A DNA stretch of 64,000 nt, from positions 3,232,001 to 3,296,000 of the forward strand of contig CM000150.2 in NCBI GenBank assembly GCA_000004695.1, written 5' to 3'. This stretch comes from Dictyostelium discoideum. Its lineage: Eukaryota. The translations under genes were made by a program, and so were the position numbers. Within the stretch, counting starts at the first letter, position 1. The number at the start of each line of letters is the position of its first letter. The notes below the pieces were generated by a model. The model worked only from the letters and a program-made list of their open reading frames with translations. It ran no database searches and was not told the DNA's origin. Shown here one piece after another: positions 8,812 to 59,350 of the stretch.

Positions 8812-11313
8812 GTAGACCAGATAGCCCAATAGTAACATCACCAGATAAAAAATCAACTAGAAATAGAGGTAGAACTAGTTCATGGGTAGCACCAGTTGCA
8901 ATTGTAAATATGATAAAGAGAAGAACAGATTTATATAGTAAAGATCAAATTCAAGTGTTTGATAGTAATGATAATTTAGCGGATAAATATAAAAAGGAAG
9001 CAGCATTGTTACGTACTGAAAAGGAGCATTTAGGTTCAAAGTTACATTTATTCGAAGGTCAATTAAAAGAGGCAAGAGAAAGTCAAGAGAAGTTATCCGA
9101 AGATAATGCTCAATTGAAGGAGTCCATTACCATTGGTAAGAAAACTTTAATTGAAAATCAAAAACTATCAAATCATAATAAGAAATTACAAGAACATATC
9201 GAAGATCTAAAGAAACAACTATTGGAATACGAAGATCAAAAAACTGAATTGGTTAAAACTCAAAATAGAATTAAATTGGATAAACAACAAATCTATCAGG
9301 AATTACAACAAAAAGAAAAAGATTTAAAAGAAAAGGAAGAATCAATTAAAGAATTACAACAACAGCATCATCAACAATTAACTCATTCAAGTAATGCTAT
9401 TTTACAATCTTCAATTAATAATAATAATGATTCAAATAATAATAATGTTAATGGTGTAACTACTGTTGGTGGTGCTGGTGAAAATGTAAATAATCAAAAT
9501 GGTGTAAATAGTACAAGTGGTGTAAATATTGAAATCGATGTAAATAGTGGTAGTAGTGGTAGTGGTAACAGTAATGGTAATGGTATTAATAAAATACAGG
9601 ATAGTCATGATTTAAGATCAGTATTAATATTGGAGAATGAAAAAGCTCAAGAAACTATTAAATTTTTAACAGAGGAATTAAAGAGATATCAAATTAAGAG
9701 TAAAGGTGATAGAGATTTAATTCAAAAATTAAAAATTAATTTAGAAGAAGCACAAAGTAATACAGTTTCAAATTCTGATCCAAATCTTAGATTATCTTTA
9801 TTATCAGAATTAGAACATCAAGTTGAAGCAAGATTAGGTAGTACTCCATTGAATTCAAGTTTTATGGAACAATTTATTGACCAACAACAACAACAACAAT
9901 CACCTTTATCACAACGTTCAATTTTAAAGAAATCAACCTCAAAAACTTCATCATTAGATGATGATGGTGATTTAATTTTAAATGATAATAATGATGATGA
10001 TGATGATAATAATAATAATGAAGATAGTGATGATAATAGTAATAATAATATTAAAAAAGATAATGAAATAAAACAATTAAAATCAACATTAGAAATAGAA
10101 ATTAAATTAAAACAAGGATTAATTGAATTGGTTGAGCAAAGTAAGAATGATAATCAAAAATTGGAACAAATGACATCATCATTAAAACAATTGAATTTAG
10201 AGCTAACTGATAAACATCAACAACAAACATCACAACTTTCAAAGATGGTAGAGGATTTACAATCACAAAAGGAACAATTGAATCAACAAGTTGTTGTCTT
10301 ACAACAATCCAATCAAGTAAACAATCAAGAGTTATTGAAAACAATCGATCAATTACAACAATCAATCAATGATAAACAAAAACAATATGATCAAACCATT
10401 ACAGAGTTAACCAATCAATCAAATACTGAAAAATTACAATTACAATCACAAATTCAATCACTTCAATCAAATATTGATCAATTAAATCAATTAAAAAAAG
10501 AACAACAATTACAAAAAGATGAATTATTATTAAAACAACAAAAACTTGAACAACAAATTGAAAAATATGAACAACAACAACCACCACCACCAAATCAAGA
10601 TGAAGAAATTCAACAATTAAAACAAACCATTGAATCAAATGAAGATGAAAATGAAAAACTTTTAAAGAAAATTGAACAATTAGAATTTGAAAATCAAAAG
10701 ATGTTATCACAACAACAAATCTTTGCAAAATCAATTGAAACCCCTTCCAATCTATCAGATCCAATTAATATTAAAGCTGGTCAAACTCAAAATGAATTAT
10801 CATCACTTAAACAAAGATTAGAGGAATTGGCTGCAAAGAATAATAATTTACTTTCAGAGAATACTCAATTAAAGAATTCTTTAACACCAGTTGATTCACC
10901 ATCAACTTCACAAAGAGAAATACCAACTACAAATGACATCAATGATTATAATTTGGTTAAATCAACATCAGCAACATCAATTGAAAATCTTCAAAATGAA
11001 ATTTCATCATTAAATACTTTAAATCAACAATTACAAAATGATTTAAAGAAATATGAATCAAAGGCACAATCACATCAACAACAACAATTACAACATACAA
11101 ATAGTACCATTAATTTGATCGATGATTTAAAGAAAGCAAATGAAATTTCAAATGAAAAATTTAGAACTTTAGAATATGAAAATTTAATGGTCAAAGAAGA
11201 TAATAAAGATTTACAAAATAAGAATCAATTATTACAAGATAAAATTGATTCAATGAAAGTTGAATTTGAAAATAATTTAAATCAAGTTCAAATTAATGAA
11301 AAGGTAAGCAATT

Positions 11314-14357: not shown

Positions 14358-14391
<34 letters not shown>

Positions 14392-14648
14392 TAATAATTT
14401 ATTTTTATTACCTTTTCTCTTAAAACAAAATCTTCCAAAAGAGTTGGACCTCTTGGACCTGCTTTTAATGAATTTGCATCATCTGATAAAGAAACACCAG
14501 TATTTGTTGTTGAATAAACTGGATTCTTATCATTTGTTTTGAATTTTTCAAGTTGTTCTATTTAATTTTTTAATTTTTTAATAATAATTTATATAAATAT
14601 AATAGTAATCGTAGAAAATTATTAATATTTACCTAATTTCTTATTCAT
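12376..14648 (-). CDS. catB: Catalase, large-subunit type, with a C-terminal class-I glutamine amidotransferase-like domain (catalase B). Exons on the minus strand approx 14648..14633 (16 nt), 14557..14412, 14292..12376; 692 aa.
   Basis: Core catalase motifs FDHERIPERIVHARGTGAHGYF, RIFSYLDTQLSRLGGPNF and VVPGIDFSNDPLLQGR, plus an extended C-terminus. Splice sites are GTAAAT.../...TTAAATAG and GTAAT.../...ATTTTAG. The total coding length of 2079 nt (692 aa) fits Dictyostelium CatB; that size match is recalled, not computed. Confidence 0.85.
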
Positions 14649-18823: not shown

Positions 18824-20752
18824 TTATTTATTATATTGCAAAATAAAATTTGTAAAAAAAAAGATTTTTTGGTTGAAATCAAATAAATTATTAATTAGTT
18901 TAATATTTTCAGAGTTAATTTTCCAAATTATAAAATTTTCTATTAATTGCGAAAGTTTACAAACCGAATCAACTAATAAGAATCGGTCGGAAAGAATTAA
19001 AGTGGATTTTAGTTGGTTCAAACCTAAATTTTTTAAAAATTCTAATTGAATGTCATTGGTTTGCATATAGATTAATTCTAATATAATTCGAAGCGATTCA
19101 GAGGTTAAATCAATGTCACATTCAAAGTTAATAACTCCATTAGTAGATTCTTCAAAAGATTCACATGTTAAAATCGTTTTAAAATATTCACTAGATTTAA
19201 TTAATATTTCTTTATGTGCTTTAAAAATTCTACCTTGAATAATTAATTGACAATTACTCGTATTTTCATCATTTAATAATTTAATTTCTTCTTCTTTATT
19301 ATTATTATCTTTATTTTTATTTCTAATTTTAATTTTTCTAATTAATTTTTTATTTTGTATTAAATTTGATTTTAATGATAAAATTGTTGATTTACTTTGA
19401 TTATATTGATGTTGAAATTTAGTGAATCTTTGCTGTTGTTGTTGTTGTTCTTCTTCTTCTTCAATTGATTTTAATAAAATTTCATTTCTTTGACCAGATA
19501 TTAATAGTAATTTACTTAATTCTTTAATGAATTTTAATTTTTCAATATTATTTTCAGTGAATGATATTGGTAATAATTCAATTTGAAATGTTAATAATTT
19601 AATACCATCAATTCTTAACTCTTTAAATAATCTAATTAATGAATAAACTTGAATATCGAATAACCATTGTAAAACTCTTTCATTATCCCATTTATGAATT
19701 TTTGATAATTTAATTTTTCTAATTAATTCAATTGATTCATCTTCTTCATTAAAATAATAAAAATTATTTAATTGATTAAATTTATTATTATTATTTTGTC
19801 TACAATCTTCAGAGTGATTATTATTATTATTATTATTATTATTATAAATATTATCTTGTTCTTCTTCTTCTTCTTCTTCTCCTTCCTCTTCTTCATCACC
19901 AATTAATTGATTTGTAATTGTAGATTTTTGTGATAAATTAAAATGAATAGTGAATGGATAATCATAAATTGGATCTGGATGTTGATTTGGATTTGTATTT
20001 GAAGTACCAAACTTTTTGAAATAATTTGATGATTTACATCTAAATAGTTGAGTTCTATCATTTTTATTATTTTCCATTACACATGCTAAGAAAAATCTAG
20101 TTACATTATTGTTATTATTATTTTTATTATTTAATTTTAAATAATCAGTTAAATCTAATTTTTTATCGAAATGAATTGGTGTAGTTGGTAAATTTAATGG
20201 TAATAATGTAAAATTAAGTTGATCGGTAATTATTGAATAAACTTCATGTGAATCCATTCTTTTAAATGATTCTTTTAATATTGCTTCATTTGATTTTGTA
20301 CTGATATACCAATTAATGATAGAATTTGGATCGAATGTCATGAATAACATATTTATAAATAGATTGGTTATTTCTAATCTTGGGTCGAATTCCCATGACC
20401 AAATTGCAATTCCTCTACTATGATTATCTCTACCAATATAGCACATCTCCCAACCAGTTTCATATTTATATTTTAAATTTGAACTATATAAATATTGATT
20501 TTTTATTATTATTATTGCTTTTTCATCATGTTCTTCTTTTTCTTTTTCTTCTTTTTCTTTCTTTTTATTTTTAATCGATTTATATTGATTTGATTTTGTG
20601 TCATAACTAAATTCATGATATGAAATTGGTCTTTTAAATTCTATTTCTTTTGCTGTTAAATTATCTATATCAATTTCTAACATATATAATGGTACAATAT
20701 CTTTATTATTTATTTTTACTTTATATTCTAAATCATTTTTTATAACTTCCAT
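18824..20752 (-). CDS. BTB/POZ-domain protein, paralogue 1. Single exon, about 642 aa from the ATG at 20752. It has a distinctive N-terminal domain and a C-terminal BTB.
   Basis: C-terminal BTB: CQLIIQGRIFKAHKEILIKSSEYFKTIL...LRIILELIYMQ. N-terminal region: GWEMCYIGRDNHSRGIAIWSWEFDPRLEITNLFINMLFMTFDPNS. The central part contains poly-E and poly-N tracts. The ORF-track start at 20851 is a low-complexity leader. Confidence 0.65.
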   Translation of the reverse strand: MEVIKNDLEYKVKINNKDIVPLYMLEIDIDNLTAKEIEFKRPISYHEFSYDTKSNQYKSIKNKKKEKEEKEKEEHDEKAIIIIKNQYLYSSNLKYKYETGWEMCYIGRDNHSRGIAIWSWEFDPRLEITNLFINMLFMTFDPNSIINWYISTKSNEAILKESFKRMDSHEVYSIITDQLNFTLLPLNLPTTPIHFDKKLDLTDYLKLNNKNNNNNNVTRFFLACVMENNKNDRTQLFRCKSSNYFKKFGTSNTNPNQHPDPIYDYPFTIHFNLSQKSTITNQLIGDEEEEGEEEEEEEQDNIYNNNNNNNNNHSEDCRQNNNNKFNQLNNFYYFNEEDESIELIRKIKLSKIHKWDNERVLQWLFDIQVYSLIRLFKELRIDGIKLLTFQIELLPISFTENNIEKLKFIKELSKLLLISGQRNEILLKSIEEEEEQQQQQQRFTKFQHQYNQSKSTILSLKSNLIQNKKLIRKIKIRNKNKDNNNKEEEIKLLNDENTSNCQLIIQGRIFKAHKEILIKSSEYFKTILTCESFEESTNGVINFECDIDLTSESLRIILELIYMQTNDIQLEFLKNLGLNQLKSTLILSDRFLLVDSVCKLSQLIENFIIWKINSENIKLINNLFDFNQKIFFFTNFILQYNK

Positions 20753-24804: not shown

Positions 24805-24877
24805 TGCTCGATGCAGGGATCGAACCTGCGACCGTGGCGTTATTAGCACCACGCTCTGCCGACTGAGCTAATCGAGC
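24805..24877 (-). tRNA. tRNA-Ile, anticodon AAU.
   Basis: The reverse complement reads GCTCGAT-TA-GCTCAGTCGGCAGAGC-G-TGGTG-CTAATAA-CGCCA-CGGTC-GCAGG-TTCGATC-CCTGC-ATCGAGC-A. All stems pair in a canonical cloverleaf, A and B boxes are present, and the anticodon loop is CU-AAU-AA. Confidence 0.9.
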
Positions 24878-49992: not shown

Positions 49993-50507
49993 ATAATTAT
50001 AATAAAAATAAAAAAAATATTTTTTTTGATGATGTGTAGTTGGTTATAATATATTTAACCCTTTTTTTATAATTATTAAATTATTCTTACCATTTTTTTT
50101 TTTTTTATTATTAACTATTTTAAAAAAGGGTTGCCAAAGAGAACAAATAAAATCTCAGAATGATCATTTAATAATTTTTTTTTTTTATCCTTTTAAAATT
50201 TTTAACCACAAACTTAAAATAGAAATAATTTGTATTTTAGTTAAATTGTATTTTTTTTTTGTTTTTGTTTAACAAAAAGTTGTCAAACCAATTTTTTTTA
50301 TTTTATTTTTAATTTTTTTTTTTTTTTTTAAACAAAAAAAAAAAAAAAAAAAAAAAACTATAAAAAGGAATTTTTTTGATTGTTTTTTTTTATTTTTATT
50401 TTTATTTTTATTTCATTATAAATCATAAAAAAAAAAATATATATATAACTCTTTTTAAAAAAAAACTAAATTCACATTTTATAATAATAATATTTAAAAA
50501 AAAAGAA

Positions 50508-50723
50508 ATGAATAAATTAATTGTTTTTATTTTATTGGTTGTCTCATTAGCCTGCGTTTTCGGTGAATTAGAAGGTGTCCAACCTCAAGTTTGTAAAATG
50601 AAAGCAAATGATTGCAACAGAATGCACCAAGCTTATTTATATGCAACCCAAAATGGTGATTGGAAAGATATGCCAAAAGATGCCCAAGAATTGTTCTTAT
50701 CAGTTTATAAAAATAATTGTTAA
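50508..50723 (+). CDS. Small secreted 3-Cys peptide, paralogue A. The precursor is 71 aa and the predicted mature peptide about 51 aa.
   Basis: ATG at 50508; signal peptide MNKLIVFILLVVSLACVFG. The mature peptide ELEGVQPQVCKMKANDCNRMHQAYLYATQNGDWKDMPKDAQELFLSVYKNNC* has three Cys. Confidence 0.45.
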   Translation: MNKLIVFILLVVSLACVFGELEGVQPQVCKMKANDCNRMHQAYLYATQNGDWKDMPKDAQELFLSVYKNNC

Positions 50724-51384
50724 ATTTGGAATTCCAATTCTTTTATTTTTAAAAAAAAATACAAAAAAATAAAAAATAATAATAAAAAGTTAAATTTCAT
50801 GATATTATAATTATTTACCATATTTATATTATTTTTGTTTGTTTTTTTTATTTTTTTAATGTTTTTATTGCATTAATTCATGTCCTCCACAAAATTATAA
50901 TTTATTATAATATTTTTTAGTTTGTTTTTTATTTTTTTTTTATTTTTTTTTTTGAAAAATATCTATTGGCAATTCTATAATCATTCTTTGAAATTGTAAA
51001 ATAATATTCAAAAAAAATTACAATCGTGATTGAATTTATTAAAAAAGTAATAACCAAAAAAAAAAAAAAAATAATTATAACTTTTATTTTATAACCACAA
51101 CACACATTTTTATTTTTTTATTTATTTTTTGAAATTTTGAATAATTATTTTATCCTTTCAAAATAGTTTTTTTTTTGTATCTTATCCCAAAATAGTTAAT
51201 AATGGTTAATTATTTTTATTTTTATTTTTATTTTCATTTTTTATTTTCCTTTTTTTTTTTTTTTTATTATTTAAAAAAAATTGTATAAAAAAAAAAAAAA
51301 AAAAAAAGTTATTATCAATTACATTCTTAAACAAAAAAAAAAGAAAAAAAGAAAACAAAGAAAACCTAATTTTTAAAAAAAAAA

Positions 51385-51606
51385 ATGCAAAAAATTATTT
51401 TAGTTATATGCTTAATTTTATCATTGGTATTTATTTCTTATGGAGAACAAACTTCGAGCGCAAAATGTTACATGAGACTCGATGATTGTGAAAAGATGAG
51501 AAAGGCTAGAGAAAAATCAATTGCTGATGGATCAATTAATCATATGCCAGCTCAAGGACGTCAATTATTTGAGGAAATCTATGCAAACAACTGTCCAAAA
51601 GCTTAA
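51385..51606 (+). CDS. Small secreted 3-Cys peptide, paralogue B. The precursor is 73 aa.
   Basis: Signal peptide MQKIILVICLILSLVFISYG. The mature peptide EQTSSAKCYMRLDDCEKMRKAREKSIADGSINHMPAQGRQLFEEIYANNCPKA* shares the C-x-M-x(3-4)-DC ... MP-x-[DQ]-x(2)-[EQ]LF-x(3)-Y-x-NNC pattern with 50508..50723. Confidence 0.45.
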   Translation: MQKIILVICLILSLVFISYGEQTSSAKCYMRLDDCEKMRKAREKSIADGSINHMPAQGRQLFEEIYANNCPKA

Positions 51607-51740
51607 TAAAAATTAAATTCAAAAGAAATAAACTTAAAAAAAAAAAAAAAGATTGAAAGTTCTAATTTTAAAATAAATAATAGTTTTAATTTTTGAAAAA
51701 GAAAACAAATATATTTTATTAATAAAATAATAATATTTAC

Positions 51741-51798
<58 letters not shown>

Positions 51799-52112
51799 GA
51801 TTTTCAATTTATTTTTTTTGATTATTTATAAACCACCACCCATGGTTTATTATTATAAAATTTTTAAAAGAAAAAGTGAGGAAAGTCCAAATTTGTAATA
51901 GCATTTATCCAATCAAATTATTTAATCCTACACTAAAAAAAAAAAAAAAAAATTATAATATTTCATAAATATTATTTTCAAATAATTGATGGTTTTTTTT
52001 TTTTTTTTTTTTTGATTGTTCAAAAATCCTTTTAAAACAAATACAAATAATATACGTAGTCAATCCCTAACGAACATTTTTTTATATTATTTTTTTTTTT
52101 TTTATTTAATCA

Positions 52113-52143
<31 letters not shown>

Positions 52144-52731
52144 CCAATGAAATTTAAATGATTAACAAATAGTAGTTGTCTGAAAGCACGAAAACCCTCA
52201 TTGTTTTTTATTGATATTGTTATTACATTTTTTTTTTTTTTTTTTTTTTTGATTTTAAAATCATATGATTCTTAAGAATTCTGCACTGGTGGGGGAAATT
52301 ATTTTTTTTTTTTTTTTTTTTTTTTAATTGATAAAAAAAACAGTGTTTATTCGTAAAGTAGATATTTATGAGGCCTAACCATAAGAATTACAACTGTTCG
52401 ATTTGAAATAAAATTCCAATATCCATATTCATATCTTTTTATTTGAAAAAAAAAAAAAATTTTAAAAAATAGACTAACTGAAAATTTTAAAAAATATGAA
52501 AAATAATACTAGTAATGGAGATTATAAACAAATCAAAAAACAATTGTTTGATAACCTTTTTTTTTTTTTTTTTAAATAAAATATTGAAAAATAAAAATAA
52601 AAATAAAAATAAAAATAAAAATAAAATAAAATAAATAAAAATAAGACAAATTAAAATAAAATAAAATAATAATATTAATAATAAAAAAAAAAAAAAAAAA
52701 AGATTTTAAAAATATTAAAAACAAAAAAATA

Positions 52732-52737
<6 letters not shown>

Positions 52738-52808
<71 letters not shown>
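52738..52808. repeat. (AAAT)n microsatellite, about 18 units, inside a gene-free AT-rich region of more than 3 kb.
   Basis: aaataaataaataaat... run. The minus-strand ORF 52572..52832 (FIYL repeats) is an artefact. Confidence 0.8.
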
Positions 52809-52818
<10 letters not shown>

Positions 52819-54302
52819 GCAAATAAAAACAAATTTAAATTATTTTACTAAAGGTAGTATATGTACAATTTTTTTTAAAGATTCCTTTTTTCCATTTTTT
52901 TTAAAAGATTGTAGATGAAAAATAAACCTTTTTTTTAGTTTTTTCAGAACTACAATGTTTACCTTTTTTTGTTTTGCATTTTTTTGTGTATTGTTTAATG
53001 TTTAATAATAGTTACTATTTTCATATCATCCGATATCTAAGAAAATCAATTTTGGAATTGTTTTTAAAGATTTGTTTTTTTTTTTTTTGATAACTTCCTT
53101 TATTTATTTATTTTTTCCATAAAAAAACAAATTTAAAAAAATATTAAATTAAAATAAAAAAAAAAACATTTTTATATCTAAAAAACTATATTTTTTTTTA
53201 TTTTCTTTTTTTAATTTTTCTTTTTTAATTTAAAAAAAAAAAATAAAAAAAAAAAAAAATATATTTAATCCATTTTTTTTAAATATAAACGTTTTTTATA
53301 ACCTACTAATAAAGATATAGCGAGTGAGTACTGACATTTCATATTTTATAGTTTTTTAAATATATTTTTTTTTTTTATCACACTAACTTTTTTTTTTTTT
53401 TGATCATTTTTTTTTTTCTCATTTGTAAAATATTTTTTTCAATACACATATACAAATAAACAGACAAAATCCTTATATATAATAATATAACAGAAAAAGT
53501 ATTTTTTATTTTTTTTTTTCTTTTTTTTTATTTTATTTTAATTTTCTTAATTTTTTTTTAAATAATTTATTATTTTTATTATAATCACCATTGTTTTTTT
53601 ATTTTTTTTATTATTTTTTTTTATATTTAATTTTTTTTTTTTTATTTTTATTTAATATAAAAAATTTAATAAATTTATTAAATTATAATCACACATTTTT
53701 TTATTTTTTAATTTTAAATGGTAAGAGGATATTTAGAAATATCAAAATTCGCTATTGTTTAGGTTCATTTTCATACTTTTTTTTTTAATTGAATTTCATC
53801 TCAAAAATTAAAAAATTTTTTTTTTTATTGTTTCTATTCAAATAATTAAAAATTTTTTTTTTTTATTTTTTTTTTTATTTTTTTTTTATTTTTTTTTTTT
53901 GCATAAATCAAACAATTGTTTAATGTTTGCAAATATTTAGTCATTGTGTGAAATTGGGGAATGTGTTTTTTCAAATTTTTTTTTTATATGTTTAAAAAAA
54001 AAAATAATCTCAAAGGTAATAATAAATAATAAATAATAAATAATAAATAATAATAATAATAATAATAATAATGATAATAATAATAATAATAAAAATAAAA
54101 AAATAAAATAAAAATAAAATTATATAAACAGAGTCAAACCCAAATCTTATTTAAAAAGATTGTGTTTGATATTTTATTTTTATTTTATTTTATTTTTTAT
54201 TTTTAAATTATTTATTTTTGTCAATGACAATTTGTGGTTTTGTGTGTGTGGGATTATGTAGAGAATTTTTTGGGTGTTTATGTGTGCGTTTGATAGTGCA
54301 AT

Positions 54303-54333
<31 letters not shown>

Positions 54334-55104
54334 CTTTCTCTATCATTCAATTGTTTTAAAATTATGATGAAAAAGGATAATAATAAAAAAATAGTGCGAA
54401 TAAATAGAAAAAATAAAAAATAAAAAAATAAAAAAATAAACATTCAAACATAATAGAGGTTCTATCAGTTTATTTATTATAATTAGTTTGAACCCATCTA
54501 TGTATTTTTAAAAATTAATTTCCAAAAAAAAAAAATTAAAAAATAATAATATTAATATTAAAAAAAAAAAAAATAATATATTTATTATTAAAAAAAAAAA
54601 ATAATAATAATAATAGTAGTAATAATAATAATAATAAATATTTATACTCGCTCCAATATTGTATGTGTAAACCAAATATAAAGAAATTTCCATCTCCTAT
54701 TACTAAATTTAAATTTTATATATTTTAATATACTTCTTTTTAAATATATTTTTTTTTTTATTTTTTATTGTTATTACCTAATAATTCTAATTTTCAAAAA
54801 AAAAAAAAAAAAAAAAAAACAAATTCAAAACCACTGTACCAATTATCTAAAAAATTATTTAAATTTATATTTTATTCAATATTTAAAAAAAAGTTTGTTT
54901 TAAAAGTTATATTATTTTTATTAATAAAATTTTTTTTTTTTTATAATCCAACTGAAAATAAAATAATTATAATAAAAAGTTTCTAAATCTCCTTTTTTTT
55001 TATTATTTTTTTAAAACCAAAAAAAAAAGAATAAAAATATTCATATTTATTTTCATATTCCAATAATAATAATAATATATTATACCAAAATAATAAAAAA
55101 AATC

Positions 55105-55136
<32 letters not shown>

Positions 55137-55287
55137 CCCTTAATTTTATTTTTATTTATACATTTAAACTAATTTTATTAACTTAATTAAATTAAAAATT
55201 TTTTATAAATAATTTTTAAAAAGAAAAAAAAAAATAGTAATATTAAAAATAAATATATTTAGTGAAATATTTAGAAATTAATCAAAA

Positions 55288-57147
55288 ATGGTTATAATGG
55301 ATCATAATACCAATATATCAGGGTCTCCAACATCTTCCCAGGTACTTTCTAATGGAATTCAATCAATTCAAAGTGGGATTTCAAATAGAGTTCAATCTAT
55401 TCAATCTCTGCCGCCACAAATGTATATATTAAAAGAAAGAATTGTAAATAAAAATAATTATCATATAATGGATAGTAATAATAATAATAATAATGTAAAT
55501 AGTAGTAATAATAGTAATAATAATAATGTTGGATTAAAGGACTATGGAGAAGGCGGAATTTATAGTTTCGAAGATGATAGTCATAGATCTGCCTCTCCAT
55601 CAAGATTAAGATCACTCTCTGCTCCTGGTTCAACAAGTACAACAACTGCACCAGCAACATGTACAGGTACAAAGAATCAACGTGAACTATTTCAACAATC
55701 AATTGATTCATTAGCTTCAAAATATAATAATGGTAATAACAATAATTTAAACAACAATAATAATAATAATAATATAAATAATAATAATATAAATAATAAT
55801 AATAATAATAATAATAATATAAATAATAATAATAATAAAGATATAAATAGTAATAATAAATCATCATTAAAAAATAGTGGTGGTAGTGGTAGTTGTGGTA
55901 GTGATAGTGAACAATTAAATTGTAGAATTAGAGATTCAACTGATGAAATGTATGAAAGTGAAGAACTTGCAAATATTGATGACGAAATGATTAGAATGAG
56001 ATCTTTATCACTAACATCATTTGAAACATTTAAAAAGATTGAAAGAGAAAAGAATATTTACTCTCCATCTTCCACTAGAGATGATGATGTTTTATCACCA
56101 TATGAAATGATGTCACATTTGGAGTATCAAGAAAGATTAGAAAGAGAAGAAATGGAAAGAATGGACAAGAATAATGTTATCATATCACAATCATCAAGCG
56201 ATGGTTATACTGGTAATCAAGTTCAATGTGAATCAACATTAACATCGTCATCTTCAATAAAATCATCATTATCATCATCTTCCTCACTTAATATTAGTAC
56301 TTCAATTCCAAGAATTAGTGTATCATCTTCAAATTCTTTCTCTGGTTCACCTTCAACTTGTTCGATTTCTCCACCAAAATCATCATCATCTTCTTCAAAG
56401 TCAAAAAATAGTTTAACTGGTAGTTTAAATGGTACAAGTGTATTAATTCAACAACAACAACAACAAAACCATGGTGGTGGTAATAATAGTCCAATTACAA
56501 GTATTACCAATTCACCATCAACTCGTTCTTCACCATTATTCAAAAGGTCATTAACTTCAAATACTACACTTTCAAAATCATCTACTAAATTACCATCTGT
56601 TGAAAAGGAACAACAGCCAACTCAACAAGCACCTTTATCACCACAAGTGCAACAACAAGCTCAACAATTACCACCACAAGTTCATGCTCAATTACAAGCT
56701 CAAATTCAACAACAACAACAACAAAATATTCCAAAAAAAGTACAACCACTTGTAAAATCATTATCTTCACAAACTATTTTAAAGGAACAACAAAATAAGA
56801 AACAACCAATTGCAGCCGTTGCCTCGCCATCAACAACTTCTTCATCATTAGCACAAAATAGACCATCAACTCCAATTCAAATGTCATCATCACCAAATTT
56901 AAATCCATTAAAAAAGTTAACAAATAAACTTTCATTATCAACTCATTCATTACCACAATCACCTCCACCACAAACATCATCGAATACACCAACTTTGACA
57001 CCAAAAAATAAACTTGTCAAATGTCCATCTGGTAATTCAATTTTACCAAATAAAAAATCAATTTCTCAATCACAACAATCTCAACCTGTAAATAATTCAT
57101 TTCAATTGGAATTAAAACAACATTTGAAATTGAAAAAAGAACAAAAT

Positions 57148-57698: not shown

Positions 57699-59350
<1,652 letters not shown>

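Follow-up and report, generated by a model that had tools for sequence, protein, structure and literature searches.

A tandem pair of small three-cysteine proteins with predicted signal peptides belongs to a gene family of the Dictyostelium prestalk, stalk and cup lineage

What do two short, closely spaced open reading frames (ORFs) with similar cysteine patterns encode on chromosome 1 of Dictyostelium discoideum, an organism whose development serves as a model for the evolution of cell types and their communication? The ORFs lie in a 64 kb stretch of the AX4 chromosome (contig CM000150.2, positions 3,232,001 to 3,296,000; hereafter the window, in whose coordinates all D. discoideum features are given), where intergenic DNA has a GC content of 12%. 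An initial annotation, made from the sequence alone, had proposed that they produce paralogous secreted peptides of about 50 amino acids (aa) with a shared three-cysteine framework, perhaps with a signalling or antimicrobial function. We found that both are protein-coding genes of a small, lineage-restricted family under purifying selection and transcribed in the prestalk, stalk and cup lineage. Gene A (DDB_G0269672, UniProt Q55DF9; 50508..50723, 71 aa plus a stop codon at 50721-50723) and gene B (DDB_G0269674, UniProt Q55DF8; 51385..51606, 73 aa plus stop) each consist of a single-exon coding sequence (CDS).

Both genes are on the + strand with their starts 877 bp apart, in agreement with the previously noted spacing of about 870 bp, and 661 bp separate them. 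The start formerly assigned to A, 50376, corresponds to an in-frame upstream TTG of a mechanically called ORF, whereas the true ATG is at 50508; the ATGs of both genes have the A-rich context usual in the D. discoideum genome. The ORF translations match the annotated proteins DDB_G0269672 and DDB_G0269674 with 100% identity and equal length, so the suggestion that they were too short or too diverged to be picked up by annotation did not hold. Both entries are described as ‘hypothetical’ or ‘uncharacterized’ and carry no Pfam domain or family assignment, and a literature text search with the gene, protein and UniProt identifiers of the family members found no mention of them. The A and B genes and their expression values were already public; that they form part of a family, and the fold, selection and lineage-specific expression of that family, had not been described before.

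The precursors of A and B align over their full length with 33% identity (BLASTP E 5e-14). Their mature parts match each other at E 9e-8 in a six-frame tblastn search of the window, in which no other match was better than E 0.1 and no third copy of the family was found. The cysteine framework described in the initial annotation is present exactly in both, as C-K-M-K-A-N-D-C ... M-P-K-D-A-Q-E-L-F-L-S-V-Y-K-N-N-C in A and C-Y-M-R-L-D-D-C ... M-P-A-Q-G-R-Q-L-F-E-E-I-Y-A-N-N-C in B, with a first spacer of x(3) in each case. We compared the Smith-Waterman score of the two mature parts with scores from 2000 composition-preserving shuffles. The observed score was 87 vs 21.8 ± 4.5 in the shuffles (z 14.6; 0/2000 reached 87), and z values across family members ranged from 14.6 to 37.7. 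Because the shuffles fall far below the observed score, AT-biased composition, which had been named as a possible source of the resemblance, does not explain the A/B match. A and B are therefore true tandem-duplicate paralogues.

Searches with an exhaustive HMMER profile (1.84 billion cluster representatives), a word-indexed profile (5.8 billion clusters) and single sequences defined a family of six proteins, comprising four D. discoideum paralogues and two D. firmibasis orthologues. Apart from A and B, the D. discoideum members are DDB_G0293422 on chromosome 6 and DDB_G0271260 on chromosome 2 (69 aa each), both found by profile search. D. firmibasis RB653_007031 is the orthologue of A (73% identity) and RB653_007030 that of B (80% identity). 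Between the first and last cysteine, A and B share 34-41% identity; DDB_G0293422 and DDB_G0271260 are 78% identical to each other, 32-39% identical to A and 25-27% identical to B. All six proteins show the pattern C-x6-C...(33-35)...C, with the C-x6-C spacing fixed, and they have in common a Gly-Glu junction near the N-terminus, the first C, D-C, an A, M-P, an F, an N and the last C. The two profile searches yielded no homologues beyond these six members, and a scan of JGI metagenomes found no relatives. A 490-aa protein (P0006, E 4e-4) was rejected as spurious, being a repeat protein that matches solely via ‘NLFVSVYNN’. No member was present in the annotated proteomes of the other dictyostelids, where short genes may be unannotated; as far as annotated proteomes show, the family occurs only in D. 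discoideum and the sister species D. firmibasis. As a side observation, DDB_G0271262, the gene adjoining DDB_G0271260 on chromosome 2 (Kin et al.), might form with it a tandem of small genes similar to that of A and B.

Gene order at the D. firmibasis locus matches that of the window, and the tandem A-B arrangement is retained, which confirms conservation in a related species. Upstream, both loci have Sen15, a GH31 glycosidase and a C2/WW protein as neighbours; downstream, both have a 745-aa protein. As both species carry the syntenic tandem pair, the A/B duplication is older than the split between D. discoideum and D. firmibasis. DNA identity between the species reaches 83% in CDS A and 85% in CDS B vs 57-66% in the flanks and the intergenic spacer. 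The CDS alignments are gap-free from the D. discoideum side, and length changes comprise whole codons, in frame. According to the Nei-Gojobori method, the ratio of nonsynonymous to synonymous substitution rates (dN/dS) against D. firmibasis is 0.24 for A (mature part 0.19) and 0.12 for B (mature part 0.08), and both copies are under purifying selection. Furthermore, both CDSs form GC islands (0.31 for A and 0.32 for B, vs 0.12 in flanking and intergenic DNA). These data bear on the trivial explanation that A and B are chance ORFs or non-coding transcripts resembling each other through AT-rich codon bias, a concern in an extremely AT-rich genome with many short spurious ORFs. This explanation is excluded by the shuffle z values (14.6-37.7), the dN/dS values (0.12-0.24), the restriction to in-frame indels and the GC content of the CDSs (0.31 vs 0.12), together with the strong regulated transcription and the confident AlphaFold2 folds reported below.

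Signal peptides were assigned by rule-based sequence inspection. The predicted signal peptide of A (MNKLIVFILLVVSLACVFG; 50508..50564, + strand) would be cleaved after Gly19 and has Lys3, a best 12-residue Kyte-Doolittle (KD) mean of 3.38, Val at -3 and Gly at -1; that of B (MQKIILVICLILSLVFISYG; 51385..51444, + strand) would be cleaved after Gly20 and has Lys3, a 12-residue mean of 3.61, Ser at -3 and Gly at -1. Family-wide, the N-termini read M-N/Q-K followed by about 14 hydrophobic residues (best 12-residue KD mean 3.3-3.6), and the putative cleavage site [V/S]-x-G-E, with the cut between G and E, follows the -3/-1 rule in a junction that is kept in 6/6 members. With n-, h- and c-regions, small residues at -3 and -1 and no other membrane anchor, the sequences display the features of classical secretory proteins, and the signal-peptide-like N-termini noted earlier for both ORFs are borne out at this level.

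The predicted mature peptides agree with the earlier description of three-cysteine products of about 50 aa. Mature A (50565..50720, + strand) has 52 aa and 6.07 kDa, with Cys10, Cys17 and Cys52 encoded at 50592-50594, 50613-50615 and 50718-50720; mature B (51445..51603, + strand) has 53 aa and 6.07 kDa, with Cys8, Cys15 and Cys50 encoded at 51466-51468, 51487-51489 and 51592-51594. Each of the two thus contains exactly three cysteines, plus one in its signal peptide. Across the family, precursors of 69-76 aa would give mature parts of 50-56 aa (5.7-6.4 kDa) with 4-9 Lys+Arg, a net charge of -3 to +1 and a grand average of hydropathy (GRAVY) of -0.2 to -1.0, i.e., hydrophilic peptides. None of the family sequences has a second hydrophobic stretch (maximal KD ≤1.13 outside the signal peptide), and inspection of the mature peptides revealed no N-glycosylation sequon, conserved dibasic site, KDEL-type signal, glycosylphosphatidylinositol (GPI) tail or membrane anchor. 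The C-terminus is the last cysteine itself or lies 3-4 residues beyond it. Three further ideas were considered and rejected: prohormone-type processing, given the lack of a conserved dibasic site; CaaX prenylation of B (C-P-K-A), given that B is predicted to be endoplasmic reticulum (ER)-targeted and its D. firmibasis orthologue ends in C-P-N-T-K; and metal binding by a Cys/Met motif, given that the Met positions are Ile/Val in two paralogues.

Transcript evidence comes from published RNA-seq, which covers both A and B. In the data of Kin et al. 2018 (PMC6198379, Additional file 2; three cup, three stalk, three spore and two vegetative samples), A reached 33.6/32.2/42.1 transcripts per million (TPM) in cup, 68.5/33.8/33.1 in stalk, 0.24/2.2/4.9 in spore and 0.17/0.13 in vegetative cells (means 36, 45, 2.4 and 0.15). 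The corresponding values for B were 16.6/23.5/25.3, 139/79.7/76.5, 1.6/7.8/11.3 and 0/0 (means 22, 98, 6.9 and 0). DDB_G0271260 was far more abundant, with 2167/2030/1736 TPM in cup, 2548/3049/3542 in stalk, 95/30/52 in spore and 0.18/0.52 in vegetative cells (means 1978, 3047, 59 and 0.35), and DDB_G0293422 was found mainly in cup (mean TPM 588, vs 9.2 in stalk, 10.2 in spore and 0.07 in vegetative cells; PMC6198379). The same paper re-tabulates the time course and cell-type data of Parikh 2010 (Additional file 5). There, B rises from 0 at 0 and 4 h to 12 at 8 h, 548 at 12 h and a maximum of 2250 at 16 h, followed by 1635 at 20 h and 1109 at 24 h; it is listed among the stalk-specific genes with a prestalk to prespore ratio of 45:1 (3815 vs 85). 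DDB_G0293422 appears there with the late cup-specific genes and is essentially off before 24 h (52) (PMC6198379). In growing amoebae, the whole set of four is silent; transcription sets in with multicellular development, within the prestalk/stalk/cup lineage. Since the flanking genes behave differently, DDB_G0269670 being vegetative and DDB_G0269676 nearly silent (PMC6198379), A and B are separate, co-regulated transcription units. Based on co-expression, STRING places B in a late-development local cluster labelled glycosyl hydrolase/cellulose-binding, which also includes tagB, ecmG and 5NT (PMC12821622, Supplementary spreadsheet S6). In the cdl1 paper, the count for DDB_G0293422 was low and non-significant, and the supplements of Parikh 2010, of a micropublication on candidate targets of IreA (regulated IreA-dependent decay, RIDD) and of a cell-type marker paper contained no usable matches.

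A signal peptide proves entry into the ER alone, and the expression pattern leaves room for an intracellular destination. The proteins may stay inside prestalk and stalk cells, for example in vesicles or vacuoles, and act during vacuolisation or autophagic stalk-cell death: expression is highest in vacuolising stalk cells and in cup cells, and SigN, a group of small prestalk proteins with no relation to this family, was observed in vesicles only (PMC2257962). We consider retention unlikely, as the proteins have no ER-retention, transmembrane or recognisable sorting motif, their C-termini ending at or 3-4 residues past the last cysteine, and B peaks in migrating slugs, long before stalk cells vacuolise.

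AlphaFold2 models of A and B, built with the six-sequence alignment, predict a common architecture. The A model has a predicted local distance difference test (pLDDT) score of 87 and helices at residues 14-29, 32-35 and 38-51, and the B model a pLDDT of 83 and helices at 12-28, 30-33 and 36-49. In both predictions, the N-terminal arm is floppy and leads into a helix-loop-helix hairpin, whose second long helix opens with the invariant M-P. In mature A, the conserved positions of helix 1 (Cys17, Met/Val20, Ala23 and Ala/Ser27) and helix 2 (Phe44, Tyr/Phe48 and Cys52) show the i, i+3/4 periodicity of a core face, which would place Cys17 opposite Cys52 at the open end of the hairpin. Most likely, these two cysteines form an intramolecular clamp and Cys10 is the odd cysteine in the N-terminal arm.

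Is this family new, or a divergent branch of a known one? Neither Pfam nor NCBIfam gave an above-threshold match for the six proteins, and PDB sequences and structures gave no significant match, the sequence hits being at chance level (phospholamban, E >0.1). Among dictyostelid genes, the closest counterparts in kind are the hssA/2C/7E/sigN genes, with which the family has several traits in common: a lineage-restricted multigene organisation with clustered copies, products of <100 aa that contain cysteines, post-aggregative induction with prestalk/cup enrichment and sometimes a very high level, and a proposed extracellular or matrix role. Single knockouts of hssA-type genes have no phenotype (Vicente et al. 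2008, PMC2257962; Wu et al. 2021, PMC8554618), and because of this, redundancy is likely in the three-cysteine family as well. Each sigN gene is split into two exons, the first with a 13-nt ORF. The SigN proteins, of 87-89 aa, abound in Ser, Cys and Gly but contain little Lys and Arg, have a putative internal transmembrane stretch and lack a reported N-terminal signal peptide (PMC2257962). In contrast, A and B are uninterrupted from ATG to stop, and the family proteins have 69-76 aa, a predicted signal peptide, a helical hydrophilic mature part and exactly three cysteines. No hssA or sigN protein was returned by the search of 1.84 billion representatives; the two sets are otherwise told apart by description.

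Disulfide-clamped hairpins of two antiparallel helices are known from other secreted peptides of about 30-50 aa, the alpha-hairpinins and the scorpion Cs-alpha/alpha toxins of the kappa-hefutoxin type, which have four cysteines in a CX3C...CX3C pattern and two intramolecular disulfides. The models of A and B likewise predict two antiparallel helices; by description, however, the six proteins differ in having three cysteines in a C-x6-C...C pattern. They are also unlike twin-CX9C (CHCH) proteins, which lack a signal peptide and reside in the mitochondrial intermembrane space, in their C-x6-C...C spacing, their ER-type signal peptide and the lack of a Pfam CHCH hit. The resemblance to the legume nodule-specific cysteine-rich (NCR) peptides, or late nodulins (PF07127), extends to a signal peptide followed by a cysteine-containing mature peptide of 30-50 aa and to a large or growing lineage-specific family whose expression is cell-type-specific. 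As NCR peptides have 4 or 6 cysteines and the match stays below the Pfam cut-off, we regard this as an analogy of design, not homology. Sub-threshold Pfam matches, all of them to unrelated families (Nodulin_late, LPAM_1 and DUF5595), were confined to DDB_G0293422 and DDB_G0271260. Their Nodulin_late matches scored 13.7-14.3 bits (E 0.05-0.08; cut-off 30.4) and covered mostly the signal peptide plus the first cysteine pair, and the other four proteins gave no hit. Taken together, the features set these proteins apart from sigN, hairpinins and NCR peptides as an orphan family of its own, new and so far unnamed, although the kind of molecule is familiar.

The late-nodulin match also touches on the earlier suggestion of an antimicrobial role. 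Small secreted cysteine peptides are often host-defence molecules, the two mature helices are moderately amphipathic (hydrophobic moment, muH, 0.32-0.39), and peptides of this kind might guard the slug, the stalk or the sorus. With a net charge of -3 to +1 and a GRAVY of -0.2 to -1.0, the hydrophilic, neutral-to-acidic family members are nevertheless unlike cationic amphipathic, membrane-active peptides. Moreover, the genes are off in vegetative cells, which feed on bacteria, and on in the prestalk/stalk/cup lineage, and the Pfam score of the two paralogues lies far under its cut-off and derives mostly from the signal peptide. A defence function is therefore disfavoured and, in our estimate, highly improbable.

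Tentatively, we favour an extracellular, matrix-associated role in the slug sheath, the stalk tube and the cup region, although our confidence in it is limited. The precursor would enter the ER via its cleavable N-terminal signal peptide and be cut at the invariant Gly-Glu junction. Lacking a membrane span, a GPI tail and any signal for retention, the resulting hydrophilic protein of about 6 kDa would be released intact from the cell. It would fold as a helix-loop-helix hairpin, in which the second cysteine, on the a/d-type core face of helix 1, and the C-terminal cysteine, on the core face of helix 2, would form an intramolecular disulfide clamp, leaving the first cysteine in the N-terminal arm free for an intermolecular disulfide. 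Matrix-producing cells of the prestalk lineage would secrete the proteins abundantly, and these might become disulfide-linked as homo- or heterodimers or to Cys-rich proteins of the sheath and stalk tube; their role would be matrix-associated, not catalytic. Intermolecular linkage is favoured by the odd and invariant number of cysteines. A matrix role is favoured because prestalk-lineage cells produce the matrix, in which proteins of <15 kDa have been reported (cited in Vicente et al. 2008, PMC2257962), because the transcripts are at the level of structural proteins, DDB_G0271260 in particular fitting a bulk component better than a trace signal, and because B is co-expressed with the cellulose-binding/glycosidase cluster.

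Several points weigh against this reading. The family proteins lack the cellulose-binding and Cys-rich repeat modules of known Dictyostelium matrix proteins, and 0/4 genes were found among those entries of a 2026 life-cycle proteome that the search covered (PMC12821622). Secretion is predicted from rule-based inspection, and the disulfide pairing is deduced from helix periodicity. Finally, a matrix role is distinguished from a signalling role by abundance and co-expression alone, both of which are weak arguments.

The family members may instead be diffusible signals, i.e., folded peptides of about 6 kDa that leave cells of the prestalk, stalk or cup and would bind receptors on other cells, so that slug behaviour, culmination or the proportions of cell types are coordinated, with a division by stage in which B would act in slugs and DDB_G0293422 in the late cup. 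In favour of this role, the proteins are small, signal-peptide-bearing, compact in their predicted fold, disulfide-capable and free of enzyme-like features. The paralogues differ in cell-type and stage pattern, and they combine purifying selection with strongly diverged surfaces (25-41% identity); Dictyostelium development is also known to use secreted peptides and small proteins (PMC2257962). On the other hand, the thousands of TPM reached by DDB_G0271260 and B would be unusual for a signal, the sequences offer no conserved site for dibasic or other processing, there is no candidate receptor, and no family member occurs in the annotated proteomes of other dictyostelids, whose stalk/spore signalling follows the same basic logic. 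We regard signalling as a possible but somewhat doubtful role. It is a close rival of the matrix role, explaining the small folded design and the stage-specific paralogues equally well and losing on abundance and co-expression only.

A more specific proposal is that the family arose recently, within the D. discoideum lineage, and provides prestalk/cup peptide ligands, possibly as disulfide heterodimers of the A-B type, that would control culmination or a group-4-specific cup/stalk programme. To our knowledge, the gene for the SDF-1-type peptide activities released by prestalk cells has never been identified, and the family could include such a factor. We consider this decidedly unlikely. Should the proteins prove to be matrix cross-linkers, they would constitute a missing small-protein component of the sheath and stalk tube. 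Should they be ligands, they would add new signals to development, which originated along with the group-4 novelties. For either role, the value lies in a well-characterised orphan family rather than in a new principle: a compact set of four paralogues, found in close relatives only, that marks the prestalk/stalk/cup lineage and includes one of the highest stalk/cup transcripts.

The regions upstream of A and B share two short elements. The 8-mer TAACCACA occurs on the + strand at 50203..50210, 305 bp upstream of the A ATG, and at 51092..51099, 293 bp upstream of the B ATG. In D. firmibasis, it is found 267 and 268 bp upstream of the orthologues (L001 9734-9741 and 10683-10690). Counting both strands, TAACCACA occurs five times in the window, and a position-matched shared 8-mer with at least three G/C arose in 4/2000 shuffles of the two 600-bp upstream regions. 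We propose it as a candidate cis-element for the prestalk lineage. Together with the three invariant cysteines and the confident hairpin model, this shared, conserved promoter 8-mer offers a handle for experiments. A TATA-like box (TATAAAAA, + strand) lies at 50359..50366, about 149 bp upstream of the A ATG and within a block conserved in D. firmibasis, and at 51284..51291, about 101 bp upstream of the B ATG, where it is weakly conserved; both boxes are putative promoter elements. Four intergenic blocks (50157-50173, 50226-50246, 50271-50290 and 51145-51200) are near-identical to D. firmibasis vs a background of ~55-60%, and they are probably regulatory.

Beyond the two genes, the 3.7 kb downstream of B (51607-55287) are ~70% identical to D. 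firmibasis L001 11620-13882. Further small genes were considered there and rejected, as the ORFs are of low complexity only. The sole tRNA of the window, a tRNA-Ile with anticodon AAT, lies at 24805-24877 on the - strand. The blastn comparison of the window with D. firmibasis was run with low-complexity masking off (-dust no), and its output was dominated by triplet-repeat tracts, which lie within large ORFs at 58217-58367 and 55724-55876 of the window and at L001 ~540-860, 10375-10530, 14360-14517 and 19457-19630 of D. firmibasis. These tracts match each other with 82-100% identity in many registers and resemble the homopolymer-coding repeats typical of Dictyostelium genes.

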